64,000 bases of DNA. Source: Candidatus Babeliales bacterium. GTDB lineage: Bacteria; Babelota; Babeliae; Babelales; JANWKD01. Positions 46,178 through 64,000 of the stretch are shown here, piece by piece (the stretch's first letter is position 1; each line of letters starts with the position of its first letter). The notes beneath the pieces are model-generated. The model was not told the origin of the DNA. It saw nothing but the letters and a program-made list of their open reading frames with translations, and did no database searches. The position numbers were made by a program, and so were the translations under genes. The stretch is taken from assembly GCA_963701665.1 (NCBI GenBank), contig OY969622.1, positions 768,001 to 832,000 on the forward strand, in the 5' to 3' direction.

Positions 46178-48820
46178 TTAAGACAACTTAAAATCCTGAC
46201 GAGGTTCAATCCCAAGAAGGGCGTAAATTTCACTGGCAAATAATGTTTCTTTTTCATATAAAACGTTAGCCAACTTCTCGAGCTTATCACGATTGTTTTT
46301 CAAGAGTTGAATAACCTTTTGGTAAGAGCTTTCAAGCAACTTTTGTACCTCAGCATCGATACGTTCAGCTGTTTTTTGGGAGTATTGGTATTCACCCTGG
46401 TTTTGGGTATATACCACTGGCCCCATTTCCTCTGACATACCATAATGGCATACCATTTTACGCGCTATTTCAGTAGCTTTTTCAAAATCATTAGAAGCCC
46501 CGGTAGCAAGCACATTAAAGACTAATTCTTCAGCCGCTCGCCCGCCTAAGCATACCATGATTACCGCAAGCATTTCCTCCCTCGTTTGAGTATATTTGTC
46601 TTTCTCCGGTAGCGAGTGCGTTACTCCTAACGCTCGACCACGCGGAATAATAGTAACTTTATGGAGTGGGTCACTATGTTCTGGCATCAGTAATCTAACG
46701 AGCGCATGTCCTGATTCATGAAATGCGGTAATTTTTCGTTCTTCTGGGGAAAGTATAATAGTCTTAAGTGCTTTACCCAGCATCATTTTATCACTCGCTT
46801 CTTCAAAATCATGAACGGTAACAAATTCTTGTTGCGGATCTTTTGAAGCATTTAAAGCAGCTTCATTGACTAAATTAGCTAGATCAGCGCCCGAAAATCC
46901 TGGTGTTCCGCGAGCAATTTTGCTCAAGTCAACGGCAACATCTAATTTTACATTTTTAGCATGGAGCTTTAATATTTTTTCTCGACAGGTAATATCGGGA
47001 TAAGGAACTTCTACACGTCTATCAAATCTGCCCGGTCGTAAAAGTGCTTTATCGAGTGTTTCTGGTCTGTTTGTTGCAGCCATAACAATCACCGATGTTC
47101 CTTCAGTATCAAAGCCATCCATTTCTGTTAATAACTGATTGAGGGTTTGGTTACGTTCTTCATGGCCACCAATACCAGTCACCCGTTTAGCACCAACTGC
47201 ATCAATTTCATCAATGAATATGATACTTGGATTGTGCTTGCGCGCCTGGTTAAATAAATCACGCACGCGTGAAGCGCCAACACCAACATACATTTCAACA
47301 AATTCCGAAGCACTCACCGAAAAGAAAGGGCAATTTGCTTCGCCAGCAACTGCCTTTGCGAGCAATGTTTTACCATTACCCGGCTCACCGACAAGCAAAA
47401 TACCACGGGTGATTTTAGCACCAAGGCGCTTATAGCGTTCGGGATTCTTCAAAAAGTCGACGACATCTTTTAATTCTTCTTTTGCTTCTTCAACACCAGC
47501 TACATCAGCAAAGGTACATTTGACTTGAGATGGCATAAATAATTTTGCTTTTGCATTGCCTTTTGCTGCAGTACTAAGATTTGATGATTGATTTCTTTGC
47601 GATTCAAGCATAACTTTATGCGCTTCTTCAAGATCCTGCTGATCAACACATTCTTTATTTTTTTTAGAAGCATTAATTGCTGCTTTATTCATAAGATTTG
47701 CAAGATCAGCACCGCTAAAGCCTGCAGTTTCTTCAGCAACTTTTTTTAAGTTAACATCCGCACTCATCTTCAATGCTTGAGCGTTTATTGCTAAAATTTG
47801 TTCTCGGCTTGGCGTATCAGGAAATGAAACTTCAACACGGCGATCAAATCTTCCTGGTCGTAAAAGCGCTTTATCTAAAACATCAGGCATATTTGTTGCG
47901 GCAATAACAATGACTGAAGATCCAGCCGTATCAAAACCATCCATTTCAGTAAGTAATTGGTTGAGCGTTTGCTCACGTTCATCGTGACCCCCGCCAAAAC
48001 CACTCCCTCGTTGACGACCAATAGCATCTATTTCATCAATGAAAACAATACTTGGCGCGTGTTTACGAGCTTGTGCAAAAAGATCACGCACGCGTGCAGC
48101 ACCAACGCCAACAAAAACCTCGATAAAATCTGAACCAGTAATACTGAAAAACGGGCAATTTGCTTCGCCAGCGACTGCTTTTGCAAGTAAGGTTTTACCA
48201 TTCCCTGGCTCACCTATCAATAAAACACCGCGGGTAACTTTAGCCCCTAATCGCTTGTATTTTTCGGGATTTTTCAAGAAATCTACAACATCTTTAAGCT
48301 CTTCTTTTGCGTCGTGGGCACCTGCCACCGATTTAAAGGTAACTTTTATCGTAGAAGGCATAAACATTTTTGCTTTACTTTTGCCCATACTAAAGATATT
48401 ACTGCCGCCGCCTGAACCACGACTTTGTTTGAAGAAATACCAAAAACCAAGTGGCATAAGAAGGAAAGAAGCAATCAACAGTAAATGCCAGAAACTAAAC
48501 TGTGATGATAACGGCGCGACTGAGAATTGAACATTATGGTCACGCAAGAGATCAAGATTCTTTGGATTATCAGCAACGACGGTTTCAAAATGGGTATCAT
48601 CTTTCATGATGCCATACACATCTTGACCATTGATATGTACTGATTTTACTTCATTATTTTCAATTGCATCCAAATACTTTGAATAAGAAATATTTTTTAC
48701 TTGTCGCGTGTAATCAGTTAATTTAGTGAGTAACGCGATAGATATTACAAAGAAAAGGACTACAAAGACTAAGTGTTTAGGCCCGCGTGCAAAAGGATTA
48801 TTTTTTAATTTGTGTCTCAT
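46178..48820 (-). CDS. ftsH: ATP-dependent zinc metalloprotease FtsH with tandem AAA+ domains
   Basis: Two TM helices; two [24 protein letters not shown] sets 825 bp apart; one HESGH M41 domain. Confidence 0.96.
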
Positions 48821-48997
48821 AATACACCCATTCTTACTTAAATTTTCACATAAAATTGGAGCATAAGCCATTTCGTGACAGAATCATGAAATGGATCTGA
48901 TAATATATTCTAATTGTACTATAAAATATAAAAAATTGAAAGTTCTGAGTAATTATATTATAAAAGATGCGTACTGTCGATCTTTTCTGAAGAAAAA

Positions 48998-54564: not shown

Positions 54565-55872
54565 TTATGATACTGCGCACCATGTTGATGATTTTTCAGG
54601 AACAAGATAAGGCTGCAAAATAGCTGCTAATATGGGCTTATTCTGCATAAGATTCTTAACAGCTTCTTTAACAAGCGAAGGTGCTTTATTGAGTTGAACT
54701 TTTTCATCAATAGTTATCATCTCGAGCAACCATCGCAAGGTTAACGCATCTTCGATTGATAATTTTTGTATATCTGGTTGTAAATCTGGATTTGTTATAT
54801 GCCATTTTTCAACGATTCTTTGATAGGCCATAGTCTTATCACAGATCAACTGATTTTGACTGTCGTACCCTACTGCCTTCTGGGTAGTATACTTTTTAAT
54901 ATTTTCAAGTGAAGCAGCATCCCATATTTGTATTAACCATTTTTTTGTATCTAGTAATGATGATGTTACTAAGTTTGCACCATTTGGTGAGAATGAAACA
55001 GAATGTGCTGGCCCTTGTGAAGTAGCCAGCAATTGACACTTTTGTGTCGCTAAATTCCAAAGGCGTACAATTTTGTCTTCCGTTGCGACTGCTAATATCT
55101 TGTTAGAAGGGGAAAAACGTAATGCAGTAACACATTTTCTGCTTGCGAATTCCGCAATCATACTATCTTCTTGTATACTCCATACAACCACTTTAGAACA
55201 ATTATTCATAGCAAGCGCTATAAGTGATTTATCATCTGAGAAAACGAAGTGTGATGGCGAATTATTTTTTATTTCATCAATAAGTAATTTAGGTAATGTA
55301 TGACTAGCATTAAAACCGTATTTTTTTGCCATTGTTGAAGCAACAAACAAAGACATTTCTGCTGGCATCGTGTCTGAGGGTGGCGCAGTAAATGTTTGCG
55401 TAATTTTAAGCATTTTTTCAAGATGCGTAGTATTAAATTCTTTTATGAGAACATTACTCAACAAATCTGAAGCTATGTTCATAAGAGTACAACAGTCTAA
55501 ATAGTTAGCTGTATTTAATAAAGGTATCAGTGCGTTTAACGATAGTTTTTTTGCTGCGAGGAAAGCTTTGCATTTTTTAAGTATTTCTTCTTTAGATAAA
55601 GTTTTTGATTGTTGAACTAAAAAGTCACTTAATTCTTTAATAATAGACATCTCGCGTGAAGTAACAACATCTGATACTACCAAAGGATTTTGAGTTGTGT
55701 CATCACAGTCTGCGATCATATGAGTAAGTAGTTTTGATTCTTGTATGGTTTCATCGGTAAAGGTAAATTTTCCACCGTCTCGCGTTTCCACCACTATTTC
55801 CATAGCAGAAAGTGAGAATGCGGTATTTATGAGAAACAACATTAAATTTTTTATTACTTTTTTACTAAGCAT
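54565..55872 (-). CDS. putative effector: signal peptide, Skp1/elongin-C-like domain, WD40 repeats, C-terminal CaaX
   Basis: IVVETRDGGKF..SKLLTHMIAD..LLNTANYLD..L; VTALRFSPSNKILAVATEDKIVRLWN; ends WCAVS. Confidence 0.8.
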   Translation of the reverse strand: MLSKKVIKNLMLFLINTAFSLSAMEIVVETRDGGKFTFTDETIQESKLLTHMIADCDDTTQNPLVVSDVVTSREMSIIKELSDFLVQQSKTLSKEEILKKCKAFLAAKKLSLNALIPLLNTANYLDCCTLMNIASDLLSNVLIKEFNTTHLEKMLKITQTFTAPPSDTMPAEMSLFVASTMAKKYGFNASHTLPKLLIDEIKNNSPSHFVFSDDKSLIALAMNNCSKVVVWSIQEDSMIAEFASRKCVTALRFSPSNKILAVATEDKIVRLWNLATQKCQLLATSQGPAHSVSFSPNGANLVTSSLLDTKKWLIQIWDAASLENIKKYTTQKAVGYDSQNQLICDKTMAYQRIVEKWHITNPDLQPDIQKLSIEDALTLRWLLEMITIDEKVQLNKAPSLVKEAVKNLMQNKPILAAILQPYLVPEKSSTWCAVS

Positions 55873-56469: not shown

Positions 56470-59400
56470 ATGAAGCGATCCCCCGTTTTCTACATTATTA
56501 TATTGGGCGCTCTATTTTGCACTTCAGCGATTTCGGCTTCCACAGATATAATGCACCATCCAGATTTCAGTACTGATATTATAGTTGATAAAGACTGTAA
56601 ACAGTTTATCCAAGATATTATCAAAGAAGCACTCATTGATAATACGTATGAACAGCTTTCCGAGGGATTATTACATTGTTACGAAAGAATTCAATGCGAT
56701 CCTGAATGTTGCACATTACCCCTTAATGATCTTATAGATGCCTTCCCTGAATTAGTTGCAAAATTAAAAGAGAAGCTTAAAGCTCCCCGCCCTCCTCAGG
56801 GCAATCATGCTATTGTTGGCAGCAATACCATTGATTTTGGATCTCTTATAGCATTACTAATACGATTAGAATTTCTGATCAATCAACTAGCGCAACAACA
56901 AAGCTCTTGCTGTAGCCAGATACTCTCTGACTTTCAGCAAACATGGTCTATCCTTGATCATCTCTCATTTACTACTACGGTGGATCTTTCTTCCGTGTTT
57001 ACGGCGCTCAATGCATGCTGCTCAAATATAACCTCGGAATTCCAACAAACATGGACCATCCTTGATCATCTCTCACTTACTATTACGGCGGATCTTTCTT
57101 CTGTGTTTACGGCGCTCAATGCATGCTGCTCAAACATAAATTCTGAATTCCAACAAACATGGACTATTTTAGCCGGTCTTTCACTAACTGCTACCGTTGA
57201 TCTTTCTTCTGTGTTTACGGGGCTCAACGCATGCTGCTCAAACATAAATTCTGAATTCCAGCAAACATGGACTATGTTAGCCGCCGGGTTTAATGGTACC
57301 TTCAGTACACTTAATAGTTTTAATACCACTGTTACCACAGATTTTTCATCAACCTGGACAATTATCAATACCGGATTCAATGGAACTTTCTCTGCGCTCA
57401 ATGCATGCTGCTCAAACATAAATTCTGAATTCCAACAAACATGGACTATTTTAGCTGCTGATTTCAATGGCACATTCTCTGCAATTAATGCGATCAACAC
57501 TAATGCAAATAACACGTTCACCGTAATCGCAGATCTAAAAACTACGGTGACCAATGACTTTGCTGCAACATGGACAATTATTAATGCTGGATTCAATGGA
57601 ACCTTCTCTGCGCTCAATGCTTGTTGCACGAATATAAATTCTGAGTTTCAACAAACTTGGACGATCTTAGCTGCTGATTTCAATGGCACATTCTCCGCAA
57701 TCAATGCGATCAACACTAATGCAAATAACACGTTCACCGTAATCGCAGATCTAACAACTACGGTGACCAATGACTTTGCCGCAACATGGACAATTATTAA
57801 TGCCGGATTCAACGGCACCTTCTCTGCACTCAATGCTTGCTGCACGAATATAAATTCCGAATTTCAACAAACATGGACAATTTTAGCCGCTGATTTCAAT
57901 GGCACATTCTCCGCAATCAATGCGATCAACACTAATGCAAATAACACATTCACCGTAATAGCAGATCTAACAACTACGGTGACCAATGACTTTGCTGCAA
58001 CATGGACAATTATTAATGCTGGATTCAATGGAACCTTCTCTGCACTTAATGCTTGCTGCAACAATATAAATTCCGAATTTCAACAAACATGGACTATCTT
58101 AGCTGCTGATTTCAATGGCACATTCTCTGCAATTAATGCGATCAACACTAATGCAAATAACACGTTCACCGTAATCGCAGATCTAAAAAACACTGTTACC
58201 AATGACTTTGCTGCAACATGGACAATTATTAATGCCGGATTTAATGGAACCTTTTCAGCGCTCAATGCTTGTTGCACGAATATAAATTCTGAGTTTCAAC
58301 AAACATGGACTATCTTAGCTGCTGATTTCAATGGCACATTCTCCGCAATCAATGCAATAAGCATAGATGCAAATGGCACCTTCTCTGCACTGGCAGATTT
58401 AAAAAATACAATCACCAATGACTTTGCTGCAACGTGGACAATTCTTAATGCTGGATTCAATGGAACTTTCTCTGCGCTCAATGCTTGCTGCACAACTATA
58501 AATTCTGAGTTTCAACAAACCTGGACTATCTTAGCTGCTGATTTCAATGGCACATTCTCCGCAATTAATGCGATCAACACCAATGCAAATAACACATTCA
58601 CCGTAATCGCAGATCTAACAACTACGGTGACCAATGACTTTGCTGCAACGTGGACAATTATTAATGCTGGATTCAACGGCACCTTCTCTGCACTCGATGC
58701 TTGTTGCAACAACATAAATTCTGAGTTTCAACAAACGTGGACTATCTTAGCTGCTGATTTCAATGGCACATTCTCTGCAATTAATGCGATCAACACTAAT
58801 GCAAATAACACGTTCACCGTAATCGCAGATCTAACAACTACGGTGACCAATGACTTTGCTGCAACGTGGACAATTATTAATGCTGGATTCAATGGCACGT
58901 TCTCTGCACTCAATGCCTGTTGCACAACTATAAATTCCGAATTTCAACAAACATGGACTATCTTAGCTGCTGATTTCAATGGCACATTCTCTGCAATTAA
59001 TGCGATCAACACTAATGCAAATAATACGTTCACCGTAATCGCAGATCTAAAAACTACGGTGACCAATGACTTTGCTGCAACATGGACAATTATTAATGCT
59101 GGATTTAATGGAACCTTCTCTGCACTCAATGCTTGTTGCAACAACATAAATTCTGAGTTTCAACAAACATGGACCATCTTAGCTGCTGATTTCAATGGCA
59201 CATTCAGTATGCTTTCAAATCTTTCTACTGCAGTGACCAATGACTTTGCTGCGACCTGGACCATTTTAGCTGCTGGCTTTAATGGAACCTTCAGCGCAAT
59301 TAATGCCATCACGCTTGATGCAAATGGCACCTTTAGCGCACTATTAGATTTGAAAAATACTATCACTAATGATTTTGCTGCAACGTGGACAATTTTAAAC

Positions 59401-61158
59401 GCTGAGTTCAATGGAACGTTCTCTGCACTCAATGCTTGTTGCACTAACATCAATTCTGAATTCCAACAAACATGGACTATCTTAGCTGCCGGATTTAATG
59501 GCACATTCAGCACACTCGCTACTATTCCTGGCGATTTTAACGCTACATGGACTATTTTGGCCTCTGGCTTTAATGGAACTTTCACAGCGCTCAATGCTTG
59601 TTGCACTAACATCAATTCCGAATTCCAACAAACTTGGACTATCTTAGGTGCTGGTTTCAATGGGACTTTCAGCACACTCGCTACTATTCTTGGCGATTTT
59701 AACGCTACGTGGACTATTTTAGCCTCTGGCTTTAACGGCACCTTCTCGGCACTCAACGCCTGTTGCACTAACATTACTTCTGAGTTCCAACAAACTTGGA
59801 CTATTTTAAATGTCTTAACCGAAAACCTTTCAAATCCGGTTATGATTACGCAAGCAAATTTTGGAACAGCAGGTGGAACGCCCTATATCATTTCAACGTC
59901 TGGCGTATATAGGTTGGGTAGCAATGTTGTTTTCACACCATCTATAACAACTACTGCTATACTTATTACGACAACCAACGTTGTCCTTGATCTACAACTC
60001 TTCACATTAAGCCAAGGAAATACCACCACGGGCGTGAATGCTATCGTCGTTAGTTCTGGTATGACCGATGTGTATATTCAAAATGGCACAATAAAAAACT
60101 TCACACGTTCTGCAATATCATTCCAAGGGAACAATCGAAGAGTAGGAATTGATCAAACCACCACCGTATCATGTGCGGTGCGCGGCATCGAGTTAATCTC
60201 ATCGAGCGCACCGAGCCAAAATGTTATCATTCAAAATTGCAATGTATACAATTGCTCAACAGCAGCAACCGCCGATAATGCATTAATTTTACAATCATGT
60301 AATAAAGGAATAATAAAGGATTGCACATTGAATGGTAATGGTGTTAATTCAAATACCATAAATGTACTTAATTTTAATAGCTGCATTGAATTTATTGTGT
60401 CAGATATCAGTATGTATGAAAATACTGCCTCTTCGCTCAACTGCATATCATTAGATAGCACGTCTTCACTTAATTACTTTGATAACTGTATCATGATGAA
60501 TAATCAATCCATTAATACTCTCAATGGGTTTACTATTTCTAGCAACGCCAATATTTTTAACAATTGCATCGTCAATGGAAATATAAGTTATTCGACAAAT
60601 ACCAGTCCTCTAAACGGATTCAATATAGCGGGATCTTTCAATACAATGACTAACTGCGCAGTATCCTTTAATCAAACACCAGTGCCGACAAGTTCGACGA
60701 CAGTTGCCCCTATTAATGCTTTTGACTTAAGCGGATCTGAAAACATCCTATCTAATTGTCAATCAATATTCAACCAGGCCAACAGTCGTTTTGAGGGATG
60801 TTTTATCTCTACTACGAGCAATATCATCGATCACTTTATAGCCGCTAATAATATAGGTTTCTTAGGTGTCTGTGCTGGCATTTTCATTAACAGCGCCTCA
60901 GCTGTTAACAATATAGTAAGGAATTGTTTATTCGTAAATAATCTTGGTTATACTACTGTGAGTGGACAACCCACCAATGGTTTCGGACTAGATAATGCGG
61001 CTACGGGATATTTAATCTATGACAATGTTGCGTATATAAATCAAACTACACAAATTTTTGGTGTCGCTGCAGGATCTTTAACAACGCCAACAGCACCAGC
61101 ATCACAAAACTTGGCAGCTGTTACAGGTGCCTGGACTAATTTAGCACTCGCTGCTTAA
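56470..61158 (+). CDS. giant repetitive exported fibre-like protein with C-terminal right-handed beta-helix
   Basis: Signal peptide; 72-aa (216-bp) repeats with FQQTWT/FNGTF/ACC; C-terminus ISTSGVYRL..NVVLDL..IQNGTI..IQNC. Confidence 0.85.
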   Translation: MKRSPVFYIIILGALFCTSAISASTDIMHHPDFSTDIIVDKDCKQFIQDIIKEALIDNTYEQLSEGLLHCYERIQCDPECCTLPLNDLIDAFPELVAKLKEKLKAPRPPQGNHAIVGSNTIDFGSLIALLIRLEFLINQLAQQQSSCCSQILSDFQQTWSILDHLSFTTTVDLSSVFTALNACCSNITSEFQQTWTILDHLSLTITADLSSVFTALNACCSNINSEFQQTWTILAGLSLTATVDLSSVFTGLNACCSNINSEFQQTWTMLAAGFNGTFSTLNSFNTTVTTDFSSTWTIINTGFNGTFSALNACCSNINSEFQQTWTILAADFNGTFSAINAINTNANNTFTVIADLKTTVTNDFAATWTIINAGFNGTFSALNACCTNINSEFQQTWTILAADFNGTFSAINAINTNANNTFTVIADLTTTVTNDFAATWTIINAGFNGTFSALNACCTNINSEFQQTWTILAADFNGTFSAINAINTNANNTFTVIADLTTTVTNDFAATWTIINAGFNGTFSALNACCNNINSEFQQTWTILAADFNGTFSAINAINTNANNTFTVIADLKNTVTNDFAATWTIINAGFNGTFSALNACCTNINSEFQQTWTILAADFNGTFSAINAISIDANGTFSALADLKNTITNDFAATWTILNAGFNGTFSALNACCTTINSEFQQTWTILAADFNGTFSAINAINTNANNTFTVIADLTTTVTNDFAATWTIINAGFNGTFSALDACCNNINSEFQQTWTILAADFNGTFSAINAINTNANNTFTVIADLTTTVTNDFAATWTIINAGFNGTFSALNACCTTINSEFQQTWTILAADFNGTFSAINAINTNANNTFTVIADLKTTVTNDFAATWTIINAGFNGTFSALNACCNNINSEFQQTWTILAADFNGTFSMLSNLSTAVTNDFAATWTILAAGFNGTFSAINAITLDANGTFSALLDLKNTITNDFAATWTILNAEFNGTFSALNACCTNINSEFQQTWTILAAGFNGTFSTLATIPGDFNATWTILASGFNGTFTALNACCTNINSEFQQTWTILGAGFNGTFSTLATILGDFNATWTILASGFNGTFSALNACCTNITSEFQQTWTILNVLTENLSNPVMITQANFGTAGGTPYIISTSGVYRLGSNVVFTPSITTTAILITTTNVVLDLQLFTLSQGNTTTGVNAIVVSSGMTDVYIQNGTIKNFTRSAISFQGNNRRVGIDQTTTVSCAVRGIELISSSAPSQNVIIQNCNVYNCSTAATADNALILQSCNKGIIKDCTLNGNGVNSNTINVLNFNSCIEFIVSDISMYENTASSLNCISLDSTSSLNYFDNCIMMNNQSINTLNGFTISSNANIFNNCIVNGNISYSTNTSPLNGFNIAGSFNTMTNCAVSFNQTPVPTSSTTVAPINAFDLSGSENILSNCQSIFNQANSRFEGCFISTTSNIIDHFIAANNIGFLGVCAGIFINSASAVNNIVRNCLFVNNLGYTTVSGQPTNGFGLDNAATGYLIYDNVAYINQTTQIFGVAAGSLTTPTAPASQNLAAVTGAWTNLALAA
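57432..59160 (+). repeat. about eight near-identical 216-bp intragenic tandem repeats
   Basis: Antisense shadow ORFs recur at 57648, 57864, 58080 ... 59160 (period 216). Confidence 0.9.
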
Positions 61159-61215
61159 AAGGAGATAAACACCATGGAACGTATTTCTCTTTTTAACATG
61201 TAGAAAAGGAACTTA

Positions 61216-64000
61216 ATGAAGCAATCCCTCGTTTTCTATACTATTATAATGGGTGCTCTATTTTGCACTTCAGCAATGCCAATTTCGATGGATATGCTGT
61301 ATCAGCAAGACTTTACTCCTGATATTATTATTGACAGCGAATGTAAAAAATTCATTCAAACTATTATTGAAGAAGCGCTCATTGAAAATACGCAGGAACA
61401 ACTTTCTGAGGGATTATTAAAATGTTACGCAACAATTCAACGAGACCCTGAATGTTGCACGTTACCGCTTAATGATCTCATAGACGCTTTCCCTGAATTA
61501 GTAGCAAAATTAGAAGATAAACTTAAAGCCCCTCGTCCACAACAAGGCGGTCATGCTATTGTTGGCGGCAACACCATTGATTTTGGACCCATTATAGCCT
61601 TATTACTACGGCTAGAATTTCTCATCAATCAAATAAACCAAAGCTCTTGTTGTAACCAGATACTTTCTGACTTTCAGCAAACATGGACAATCCTTAATCA
61701 TCTTTCATTTACAACTTCCGTTGATCTTTCTCCTGTATTTACCGCACTCAACGCATGCTGCTCAAACATAACCTCGGAATTCCAGCAAACATGGACTATT
61801 CTTGCTAATCTCTCAGTTACTGCTACCGTGGATCTTTCTCCCGTGTTTACGGCGCTTAATGCATGCTGCTCAAACATAACCTCGGAATTCCAACAAACAT
61901 GGACTATACTAGCCAATCTCTCGATTACTGCCACAGTGGATCTTTCTTCTGTGTTTACAGTACTCAATGCGTGCTGCTCAAATATAAATTCTGAATTTCA
62001 ACAAACATGGACTATCTTAGCCTCCGGATTTAATGGAACTTTTAGCATACTTTCAAATCTTACTACTAGTACTGCCGATTTTGCTGCAACATGGACAATT
62101 TTAAATGCCGGATTCAATGGAACTTTCTCTGCGCTCAACGCATGCTGCTCAAACATAAATTCTGAATTCCAACAAACATGGTCAATTTTAGCTGCTGATT
62201 TTAATGGAACTTTTAGCACTATCGCAAACATTAATGTCGAAACAAATGGTACTTTTACTGCAATTGCTGATTTAAAAAACACTATCACCACAGACTTTGC
62301 TGCAACGTGGACAATTTTAAACGCTGGTTTCAATGGAACCTTCTCCGCTCTCAATGCTTGTTGCACAACTATAAATTCTGAATTTCAACAAACATGGTCA
62401 ATTTTAGCTGCTGATTTCAATGGAACTTTCTCCGCAATCAATGCAATAAACACAGACGCAAATGGCACCTTTAGCGCAATTGCTGATTTAACAACTACTA
62501 TCACCAATGATTTTGCTGCAACGTGGACTATGCTTAACGCTGGTTTTAATGGCACCTTCTCTGCTCTCAGCGCATGTTGCACAACTATAAATTCAGAATT
62601 CCAACGAACATGGACTATTTTAGCCGCCGGCTTTAATGGAACTTTCTCTGCAATCAATGCAATTAATATTGATGCAAATGGCACCTTCACTGCCTTAGCA
62701 GATTTAACAACTACTATCACCAATGACTTTGCTGCAACGTGGACTATGCTTAACGCTGGTTTTAATGGCACCTTCAGCGCACTTAACGCATGCTGCACGA
62801 ATATAAACTCTGAGTTTCAACAAACATGGACTATTTTAGCTGCTGATTTCAATGGCACATTCTCTGCAATTAATGCCATCACTTTTGATGCAAATGGTAC
62901 CTTCTCTGCGATTGCTGATTTGAAAAACACTATCACCAATGATTTTGTTGGTACGTGGACTATTCTTAACGCTGGATTCAATGGAACCTTTTCTGCACTC
63001 AATGCTTGCTGTACAACTATAAATTCTGAATTCCAACAAACGTGGACTATCCTAGCTGCTGATTTCAATGGCACATTCTCTGCAATTAATGCCATCACTA
63101 TTGATGCAAATGGCACCTTCTCTGCAATTGCTGATTTGAAAAACACTATCACTAATGACTTTACTGCAACATGGACAATTCTTAATGCTGGATTCAATGG
63201 GACTTTCTCTGCGCTCAACGCCTGTTGCACAACTATAAATTCTGAATTTCAACAAACTTGGACTATCCTAGCCGCCGGGTTTAATGGTACATTCTCTGCA
63301 ATTAATGCCATCACTATTGATGCAAATGGCACTCTTACTGCGTTAGCAGATTTAAAAAATACTATCACTAATGATTTTGCTGCAACATGGACAATTCTTA
63401 ATGCTGGATTCAATGGAACCTTCTCTGCACTCAATGCTTGCTGTACAACTATAAATTCTGAATTCCAACAAACGTGGACTATCCTAGCTGCTGATTTCAA
63501 TGGCACCTTCAGCGCTATCGCAAACATTATTCCCGAAGCAAACGGTACTTTCACTGCATTAGCAGATTTAAAAAATACTATCACCAACGACTTTGCTGCA
63601 ACGTGGACAATTCTTAATGCCGGCTTTAATGGAACTTTCAGCGCACTCAATGCCTGCTGCACAACTATAAATTCTGAATTTCAACAAACATGGACAATTT
63701 TAGGCGCTGGTTTCAATGGAACTTTCAGCGCTATCGCAAACATTAATGCCGAAGCGAATGGTACTTTTACTGCGTTAGCAGATTTAACAACTACTATAAC
63801 CAATGACTTTGCCGCAACGTGGACAATTCTTAATGCTGGATTCAATGGAACTTTCTCTGCGCTCAATGCTTGTTGCACAACTATAAACTCCGAATTTCAA
63901 CAAACATGGACTATCTTAGCTGCTGGTTTTAATGGAACTTTTAGTATACTTTCAAATCTTACTACTACGGTGACCAATGATTTTGCTGCAACGTGGACTA
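61216..64000 (+). CDS. second giant repetitive fibre-like protein (paralog; runs off window end)
   Basis: Missing from the ORF track because it has no stop in the window; manual translation MKQSLVFYTIIMGALFCTSA..DPECCTLPLNDLIDAFPELV.., same repeats, same frame at 63961 (TTTVTNDFAATWT). Confidence 0.9.
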   Translation, partial: MKQSLVFYTIIMGALFCTSAMPISMDMLYQQDFTPDIIIDSECKKFIQTIIEEALIENTQEQLSEGLLKCYATIQRDPECCTLPLNDLIDAFPELVAKLEDKLKAPRPQQGGHAIVGGNTIDFGPIIALLLRLEFLINQINQSSCCNQILSDFQQTWTILNHLSFTTSVDLSPVFTALNACCSNITSEFQQTWTILANLSVTATVDLSPVFTALNACCSNITSEFQQTWTILANLSITATVDLSSVFTVLNACCSNINSEFQQTWTILASGFNGTFSILSNLTTSTADFAATWTILNAGFNGTFSALNACCSNINSEFQQTWSILAADFNGTFSTIANINVETNGTFTAIADLKNTITTDFAATWTILNAGFNGTFSALNACCTTINSEFQQTWSILAADFNGTFSAINAINTDANGTFSAIADLTTTITNDFAATWTMLNAGFNGTFSALSACCTTINSEFQRTWTILAAGFNGTFSAINAINIDANGTFTALADLTTTITNDFAATWTMLNAGFNGTFSALNACCTNINSEFQQTWTILAADFNGTFSAINAITFDANGTFSAIADLKNTITNDFVGTWTILNAGFNGTFSALNACCTTINSEFQQTWTILAADFNGTFSAINAITIDANGTFSAIADLKNTITNDFTATWTILNAGFNGTFSALNACCTTINSEFQQTWTILAAGFNGTFSAINAITIDANGTLTALADLKNTITNDFAATWTILNAGFNGTFSALNACCTTINSEFQQTWTILAADFNGTFSAIANIIPEANGTFTALADLKNTITNDFAATWTILNAGFNGTFSALNACCTTINSEFQQTWTILGAGFNGTFSAIANINAEANGTFTALADLTTTITNDFAATWTILNAGFNGTFSALNACCTTINSEFQQTWTILAAGFNGTFSILSNLTTTVTNDFAATWT

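Follow-up and report, generated by a model that had tools for sequence, protein, structure and literature searches.

What do the two very large, repetitive genes at the end of this stretch of DNA encode, and what could such proteins do for the bacterium that makes them? The stretch (hereafter the window) comprises 64,000 nucleotides of contig OY969622.1, the single contig (1,337,192 bp, 93.6% complete) of a genome of the Babeliales/Dependentiae. The Dependentiae are obligate, widespread parasites of protists; to our knowledge, next to nothing has been learned about their encounter with a host and their entry into it. The two genes, designated A and B, appear to belong to a family of Sec-exported fibres, each with a coiled-coil stalk and a variable head for contacting the protist host, a reading to which we give an even chance as a whole. 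We are surer of the stalk: judged by its sequence, it is probably a continuous alpha-helical coiled coil, which is favoured over a beta-solenoid.

Gene A occupies window positions 56470-61158 (+) as an uninterrupted open reading frame (ORF) of 1562 codons, encoding 1562 aa. Gene B begins 57 bp downstream, at 61216 (+), and is 3'-open at the window end; its full length in the genome is 1549 aa. A preliminary description of this DNA had reported a tandem pair of giant fibre genes. Both ORFs are present as stated, and the pair turned out to be the first two of four tandem same-strand paralogs, A to D (genome 824470-843346; C 1554 aa, D about 1589 aa). Eight further relatives, more distant than A to D are from one another, lie elsewhere in the genome: paralogs E (843 aa) and F (867 aa), with the same architecture and a short stalk, at 1.29 Mb, and at 0.10-0.11 Mb paralog G (844 aa), whose beta-helix head is of another type, an ORF of 125 aa consisting of the N-terminal domain (N-domain) only, and four proteins of about 300 aa that lack a head. 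The twelve family genes total 30,630 bp, or 2.3% of the 1.34-Mb genome. The parts of A and B are as follows.

56470..56541 (+): gene A putative signal peptide, residues 1-24, taken from the translation
56542..56823 (+): gene A N-domain, residues 25-118, with 5 Cys, ending in a K-A-P-R-P linker
56824..59823 (+): gene A stalk, residues 119-1118, with 16 Cys-Cys pairs; three 36-aa, eight 72-aa and two 54-aa units plus irregular units
59824..61155 (+): gene A junction and predicted beta-helix head, residues 1119-1562, ending in a conserved W-T-N-L motif
61216..64000 (+): gene B, first 928 of 1549 residues; the gene ends at window-equivalent 65865, outside the window
61216-61287 (+): gene B putative signal peptide
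61288-61569 (+): gene B N-domain
From 61570 (+): gene B stalk, with Cys-Cys pairs at nearly the same positions as in A
56926-57275, 57350-59205 and 59410-59808: gene A tandem arrays (Tandem Repeats Finder)
61678-62015 and 62080-63941: gene B tandem arrays (Tandem Repeats Finder)

Tandem Repeats Finder resolved the arrays of gene A into 108-nt (3.2 copies), 216-nt (8.6 copies, 90% matches) and 162-nt (2.5 copies) repeats, and those of gene B into 108-nt (3.1 copies) and 216-nt (8.6 copies, 84% matches) repeats. The 72-aa unit parses as 11+14+18+11+18 residues, exactly as had been described, and every module starts with an eight-residue motif of the form hydrophobic-x-x-Thr-aromatic-Thr/Ser-x-hydrophobic. 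There is one Cys-Cys (CC) pair per unit in A, and the spacings between its 16 stalk pairs (36, 36, 36, 58, eight times 72, 101, 54 and 54) bear out the earlier statement that shorter and longer variants differ by whole modules. Over 965 residues, the A stalk consists of 17.5% T, 14.1% N, 13.5% A, 9.6% F and 8.6% I, with a single Pro (0.1%). The core unit had been said to lack Pro; this is true of the 72-aa units of A and fails for a few units of B and D, which have Pro in their variable stretch. Genes A, B and C contain 17 CC pairs each at almost identical positions, which points to a constraint on length. An idea that the stalk is N-glycosylated was abandoned, as its 72-aa unit holds 3 N-x-S/T sequons against about 2.4 expected from the composition and is thus not enriched. 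Antisense ORFs of 122-204 aa also lie within the stalk repeats (window 57066-57629, 59160-59774 and 61998-63662, all on the minus strand); they recur with the array, and an antisense match contains 8 TGA stops, so they are by-products of the repeat and not genes.

The hydrophobicity spectrum of the A stalk showed a single dominant peak at 3.60 residues, with a power of 670 compared with a maximum of 72 in 50 shuffled sequences. The power reached 705 in the band of 3.4-3.8 residues and 140 in that of 2.0-2.4, and the beta-helix head, serving as the control, gave no 3.6-residue peak. Since some harmonic must stand out in any tandem repeat, evidence independent of the 72-residue period was sought. 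The irregular units of A (36, 54, 58 and 101) keep the helical phase, and the phase coherence R of the CC pairs at 3.60 residues was 0.935 in A, a value reached by none of 5000 random position sets, and 0.908 in B. Stalks with quite different repeat lengths occur in 48 homologs from other genomes with at least four CC pairs; the top hydrophobic period was 3.46-3.74 residues in 44 of them. Their commonest CC spacings (25, 36, 18, 43, 29, 11 and 32) are all whole helical turns, and 62% of the 354 homolog spacings fall at most 0.14 turn from whole 3.6-residue turns, compared with 28% if they were evenly spread. The 25-residue CC-to-CC unit of the homologs places large hydrophobics at positions 4, 8, 12, 15, 18 and 22 and has ordinary charged flanks, acidic and basic. 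Thus the mixed hendecad/heptad stalk proposed earlier agrees both with the 3.6 periodicity found here and with the homolog stalks.

When the stalk profile was compared with the PDB, the best matches were the trimeric coiled coils of coronavirus spike HR1, at weak expectation values (E) of 7.7e-5 and 0.07. One of these HR1 alignments is nearly gap-free over 65 residues and places a Gly-Phe of the stalk opposite a Gly-Phe of the chain. If the stalk is helical, about 1000 residues at 0.15 nm each would give a length of about 145 nm, in line with the earlier arithmetic.

The same repeats could be read as a beta-solenoid or another beta-rich rod, of the kind found in ice-nucleation and antifreeze proteins or in the triple beta-spiral shafts of phages and adenovirus. 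In such a rod the T-x-T and Asn-Gly motifs would be strands and tight turns, and the Cys pairs internal disulfides. The composition fits this, 41% of the stalk residues being T, F, W, I or V and about 30% N, G, S or D. The T-aromatic-T/S motifs and the Asn-Gly dipeptides are invariant, nearly all stalk positions, polar ones included, are conserved between paralogs, and the unit lengths 36, 54 and 72 are all divisible by 18, which could be the length of a rung. Several of the observations that speak for a beta-rich rod also weigh against a helical stalk. The alpha-type signal exceeds the beta-type in only 68 of 107 stalk windows of 36 residues, the beta-type being stronger in the remaining 39. 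T, N, S and G together make up 43% of the stalk and charged residues about 6%, which is unusual for a coiled coil, and the invariant Asn-Gly dipeptides do not favour a helix. The 31 72-aa units vary without a 3.6 period, their differences being clustered in one stretch of 8-14 residues that has Pro in some paralogs; at least this stretch may be non-helical. The CC coherence at 3.60 residues is only 0.49 in C and 0.48 in D, lowered because of one-residue indels. A low-confidence single-sequence AlphaFold2 model of paralog E (predicted local distance difference test, pLDDT, 38) mixes helix and strand in the repeats, with strands on the FQQTWTI segments. An AlphaFold trimer of two stalk units (3 x 144 aa, 14-row alignment, run without controls) gave a score of 0.23, the mark being 0.42, and speaks for neither structure.

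Against a beta-rich rod, the hydrophobics of the stalk stand 3-4 residues apart (1, 5, 8, 12, 15, 19) instead of alternating, and the 3.60 peak has five times the power of the beta band. The common spacings 11, 25, 29, 43 and 58 hold the helical phase but break an 18-residue rung. The homolog repeats are ordinary coiled-coil sequences with charged flanks and without Gly and Pro, and the best PDB sequence matches, as described above, are helical. Beta-solenoid ice-binding and ice-nucleation proteins have a constant rung length and an in/out alternation; as far as sequence periodicity goes, the units of the stalk instead vary in length by 7, 11 and 18 residues and its period is 3.6 and not about 2. 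We therefore regard a beta-rich rod as quite unlikely and retain the coiled coil as the favoured structure.

PF04513 (Baculo_PEP_C) was the only Pfam family reached by the stalk above its cut-off of 38 bits. Gene B scored 40.8 bits in 4 stretches and gene A 23.2 bits, which is below the cut-off, and all matches lie within the repeats; 3 of 37 homologs also exceeded it (P0016 65.4, P0057 44.4 and P0122 44.2 bits). The likely reason for these matches is a polar helical periodicity common to both, and not descent, and the stalk genes differ from the gene of the baculovirus polyhedron envelope protein in having no baculovirus-like context. A search of the ESM Atlas with the stalk gave a best score of 0.79, which is below the meaningful level.

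On a 3.6-residue wheel, the second Cys of each pair falls on the hydrophobic seam, with the first next to it. Because a vicinal disulfide within one chain is unfit for a helix, links to neighbouring chains are the natural reading, and a disulfide stapling of the stalk chains is plausible. After oxidation in the cell envelope, rings of disulfides would then cross-link neighbouring chains every 5-11 nm. The genome encodes a VKOR homolog (93.9 bits) as well as DsbD, which is full-length and comprises N-terminal, membrane and thioredoxin parts. Against such stapling, DsbA and DsbB were not found in the genome with PF01323, PF13462 and PF02600. The dsbD gene, which directly follows gene D, was rejected as a functional neighbour of the array: its position is backbone synteny, and it lies far from the fibre genes in four other genomes. 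The VKOR homolog is the sole one of the genome (100967-101332, minus strand; L045:4941-5339); it is a 132-aa protein with no fused thioredoxin domain, its ORF overlaps the start of a nitroreductase-family gene, and it lies 3.5 kb from fibre paralog G.

Cystine knots and rings between chains are known from eukaryotes, such as the Cys-Cys knot of collagen III, COMP, the matrilins and the disulfide rings of fibrinogen. These are alike in that Cys at fixed positions covalently link the chains of a multi-chain rod, as we infer for the stalk. They differ in number and place: the eukaryotic knots occur once or twice at the rod ends, whereas the A stalk has a Cys-Cys pair 16 times, every 36-72 residues, and many stalk homologs have one every 25 residues.

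Residues 1-24 of gene A, read from the translation, comprise a charged start, a 13-residue hydrophobic core and a small-residue cleavage region, and look like a cleavable Sec-type signal peptide. Lipoprotein anchoring was considered and set aside as unlikely, the Cys in the signal core of A not being kept in paralogs E, F and G. The N-domain, which is probably helical in gene A, had no Pfam match and reached a best E of 1.7 in a sequence search of the PDB; an NCBIfam search gave nothing meaningful. By iterative search it was found in 64 gathered proteins, with the motifs LL.CY, DL..A.PEL and APRP conserved. The claim that this Cys-rich domain is conserved between paralogs holds for A to C, at 73-80% identity, and does not extend to D, which is 31-33% identical to them. 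As for the anchor, no YadA-type domain (PF03895) was matched in A or B, nor anywhere in the genome (93.6% complete), while the E. coli control was positive; the absence of a trimeric-autotransporter anchor noted earlier is hence borne out. No known anchor domain in Pfam was matched in genes A and B or in the 37 stalk-bearing homologs without this head. We infer N-terminal anchoring, with the base facing the cell.

The head of A was modelled by AlphaFold2 from a 60-row alignment with high confidence (pLDDT 92.1, predicted template modelling score 0.91). In the model it is a solenoid of three-stranded rungs, a right-handed parallel beta-helix, and its C-terminus consists of the last rung and a cap, so the pectin-lyase-like head without a terminal barrel was correctly recognised in the preliminary description. 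Structural comparison by VIA-align gave 163 chains at Z >= 8, with the AlgE4 A-module at the top (Z 33.8, root-mean-square deviation 2.4 A over 315 residues), followed by phi29 gp12 (32.7), NosD (31.2), CBA120 TSP3 (29.8) and K5A lyase (29.6). Among adhesins, Vag8 reached 29.2, PfbA 26.5 and pertactin 23.7. Foldseek against the PDB agreed with this, at a probability of 1.00 to lyases and tailspikes. In sequence, the A head matched PF13229 (Beta_helix) at 16.2-16.3 bits (E 0.008), below the cut-off of 25.9 bits; paralog G scored 49.9 bits, and 40 of the 60 aligned family members matched at E <= 0.01, the best at 1.6e-26.

Does the head cut as well as bind? Its top structural neighbours include many enzymes (AlgE4, the K5A lyase, the depolymerase tailspikes of CBA120, Dettilon and Klebsiella, and PL6 lyases), and family members match NosD or Beta_helix in Pfam. 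The protein could accordingly be a fibre whose head is a polysaccharide lyase, hydrolase or epimerase acting on glycans of the host glycocalyx, cyst wall or food vacuole, and not a pure adhesin. Yet sequence identity to all structural neighbours is 6-18%, and the non-enzymatic beta-helix adhesins score almost as high as the enzymes. No conserved acidic pair, His, Lys or Arg occurs in the middle rungs of the 60-row alignment. Near-invariant head positions are occupied chiefly by Gly, Asn, Cys and hydrophobic residues, and for that reason the conserved residues do not point to a particular active site or binding site, which counts against the main reading as well. Outside the Asn and Cys ladders, the only near-invariant polar residues, Y42, D69 and Q77, lie at the end next to the stalk. 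Moreover, the most divergent part of the protein is half of the helix, which suits binding surfaces more than a fixed active site. An enzymatic head is thus somewhat unlikely in our view.

Phage tailspikes and appendages (phi29 gp12, CBA120 TSP2/3, Sf6, HK620 and the Klebsiella K1 lyase) share the head fold at Z 26-33, together with the common logic of a constant attachment part and a variable beta-helix. The present family differs from them in being encoded by chromosomal bacterial genes with a Sec signal peptide, in the low sequence identity given above, and in having a 1000-residue stalk in place of the short particle-binding domain of the tailspikes. The best viral structural matches of the A head were Klosneuvirinae giant-virus proteins (E 5e-14, template-modelling score up to 0.67). 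The viral matches come from Klosneuvirus, Barrevirus and Hyperionvirus (E 5e-14 to 8e-9), which are giant viruses of protists, and in two of them the beta-helix is fused to a GMC-type oxidoreductase. A GMC-oxidoreductase is the fibril protein of mimivirus. Single-protein sequence scans of viral contigs and genome contigs found no relative.

The heads of the four paralogs, compared beyond the window end as well, proved to diverge. Identity is 82-86% in the stalk, 47-77% in the proximal half of the head and 41-53% in the distal half, which is the most divergent part; identity falls to 23-33% in some 60-residue head windows and rises again in the last 60 residues. Between paralogs, the nonsynonymous rate (dN) of the stalk was 0.09-0.12, the synonymous rate (dS) 0.80-1.16 and dN/dS 0.11-0.12; dN of the distal head was 0.45-0.71. 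Because its dS is high and its dN low, the stalk, by these substitution rates, is kept by strong purifying selection and not by recent copying between genes. Repeats within a gene are more alike, at the 90% and 84% nucleotide matches given above for A and B, which suggests repeat homogenisation within each gene. With a conserved stalk and a most divergent distal head, the four genes would provide one shaft with four different glycan-binding, possibly glycan-cutting, tips.

The family is not confined to this genome. A HMMER search with paralog E gave 532 proteins at E <= 0.001 among 1.84 billion representatives; a word-based search with the head, limited to proteins of near length, gave no match. 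Among the best 150 of the 532, 99 had the head without the N-domain, 15 the N-domain without this head, 4 both and 32 neither. Relatives come from records titled 'Candidatus Babeliales bacterium', and the source names seen all read 'hypothetical protein'. Of the 99 proteins with the head and no N-domain, 55 are 415-520 residues long, matching most of the head, and those inspected have their own signal peptide and a P-W-T-N-L/I end. Across the phylum, paralog E was matched at E <= 0.001 in 42 of 261 genomes and 24 of 145 genera, with open frames of up to 2944 aa. The N-domain plus stalk was matched at E <= 1e-5 in 21 of the 261 genomes and 13 of the 145 genera, the source genome included, and a search with the stalk alignment found 5 loci in metagenome-assembled genomes of Babeliales. 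The 37 stalk-bearing homologs without this head type carry other tips, namely another Beta_helix in 19 and a WD40 propeller in 4. Genome G025 (L057, G025:C1:1090000-1104000) contains a 1638-aa fibre gene followed by five tandem head-only genes, and the same-genus genome G110 (L053, G110:C6:259000-270000) a 2005-aa fibre gene followed by two; all of these head-only genes have their own signal peptides. A literature search on adhesins, beta-helix and coiled-coil proteins of Dependentiae found no paper on this family.

In the source genome, the array lies in a slot at genome 823872-844280 (window 55872 onward), between a gene with POZ and WD40 parts and dsbD. The backbone from ftsH to the POZ-WD40 gene, plus dsbD, is collinear with G110 at 34-89% identity. 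Because the corresponding slot in G110 holds one unrelated 397-aa ORF and not a 20-kb array, the four-gene array is a lineage-specific insertion or expansion relative to G110. The ORFs flanking the array showed no phage genes. A promoter and terminator scan gave fewer promoter-like sites than shuffled sequences and no plus-strand terminator between the genes. A search for sequencing runs listed no RNA run, and the best DNA run contained 31% of the sampled words.

Three genes near family members are of interest in their own right. Directly upstream of gene A (window 54565-55872, minus strand) lies the POZ-WD40 gene, whose product has a Skp1/POZ-like N-terminus followed by WD40 repeats, a eukaryote-like domain pair typical of host-interaction proteins in intracellular bacteria. 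At window 46178-48871 (minus strand) an FtsH homolog of 897 aa is encoded in which the M41 peptidase follows a tandem arrangement of two AAA modules and two AAA lids, where ordinary FtsH has a single module. The G110 ortholog of this double-AAA protein is 880 aa long and 89% identical. Directly after paralog F (genome 1298867-1300657, L012:8868-10658, minus strand), a 596-aa ORF ends in a C1q domain (PF00386, E 3.7e-10), preceded by five repeats of about 95 aa that each contain an I-V-(K/E)-R-D-x-S-G-N-F-x-A-G-T-I-T-A motif. C1q/TNF heads are trimeric in known proteins, and this ORF is a second fibre-like protein unrelated to the stalk family.

How, then, might the proteins reach and serve the cell surface? 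Several parallel chains (three being a guess) would form a nearly straight coiled coil about 145 nm long, in which the N-domain would be the constant base, the stalk a rigid spacer of set length, and the tips exchangeable and glycan-recognising. With no YadA anchor, and with no TolC-family protein found in the genome, export past the outer membrane would take a route other than type V or type I. Two secretins are encoded, and export to the surface could proceed through one of them. By analogy with phage tailspikes and Bdellovibrio fibres, the tips would make contact with the protist's surface ahead of uptake. Surface exposure and host binding are thus presumed.

Alternatively, the proteins may not be surface fibres at all, and act as released effectors or scaffolds in the host vacuole or cytosol, or as structural elements of the envelope. 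In keeping with this, no lipobox, barrel or known cell-wall binding domain was found, and many of the head-only relatives, at about 440 aa, lack a stalk but possess signal peptides of their own. Dependentiae also export a very large share of their proteins, signal peptides being present on 44% of Chromulinavorax coding sequences according to the excerpted text of PMC6561590. But a conserved rigid spacer of about 145 nm with a constant repeat number in four paralogs is best explained by the distance from cell to target, and a constant shaft with variable tips is what receptor-binding fibres typically have. A location away from the surface is therefore unlikely, and we keep to the reading of surface fibres.

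Similar designs have been described. Trimeric autotransporter adhesins (YadA, BadA and SadA; type Vc) are very long fibres with polar, N/T/S/A/I-rich coiled-coil stalks of mixed periodicities and a beta head, and serve host adhesion. The present family would resemble them in its long fibre, in the polar, mixed-period coiled-coil stalk predicted here and in its beta-structured head. It differs in lacking the YadA barrel anchor, in its reversed polarity with the head at the C-terminus, and in its periodic Cys-Cys pairs; moreover, the head of the autotransporters is a left-handed trimeric beta-roll, while the head modelled here is a right-handed beta-helix of a single chain.

The MAT fibres of Bdellovibrio bacteriovorus are cell-surface, trimeric fibres whose chains begin with a signal peptide and a conserved N-domain (about 130 aa) and end in variable tips, as laid out in the excerpted text of PMC10769870. 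In architecture, the likeness extends to the signal peptide, a family-specific N-domain without a structural relative, the long fibre with variable tips, and the many paralogs per small genome of a cell-entering bacterium; in both, the N-domain is presumed to bind a surface element. By the same excerpts, MAT shafts are intertwined trimeric beta-prisms and the MAT N-domain is beta-rich, whereas here the shaft is predicted to be helical and Cys-stapled and the N-domain looks helical; one MAT subfamily has a C-terminal S74 peptidase (PMC10769870), and no S74 match occurs among the Pfam hits here. The family is therefore not a new kind of system, constant-base, mosaic-tip fibre repertoires being known from phages and Bdellovibrio.

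A bolder proposal, which we consider very improbable, is that the proteins form cross-linked, nearly unsupercoiled nanorods (18 residues per 5 turns, about 145 nm) that enlarge or decorate the surface so that protists swallow the parasite, with heads shared or exchanged with giant viruses. If this were true, the nanorods would be a bacterial counterpart of the giant-virus fibril coat in the same kind of hosts, and the periodic Cys-Cys rings a means, not described before, of constructing a rigid protein ruler. For protein science, an exact 3.6-residue period over about 1000 residues combined with a vicinal Cys pair per repeat is unusual, and together the two would make the stalk a testable example of a straight coiled coil, covalently stapled and of defined length. 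For the biology of Dependentiae, a family that takes up 2.3% of the genome and combines a conserved shaft with variable tips provides concrete candidates for the host-entry step.

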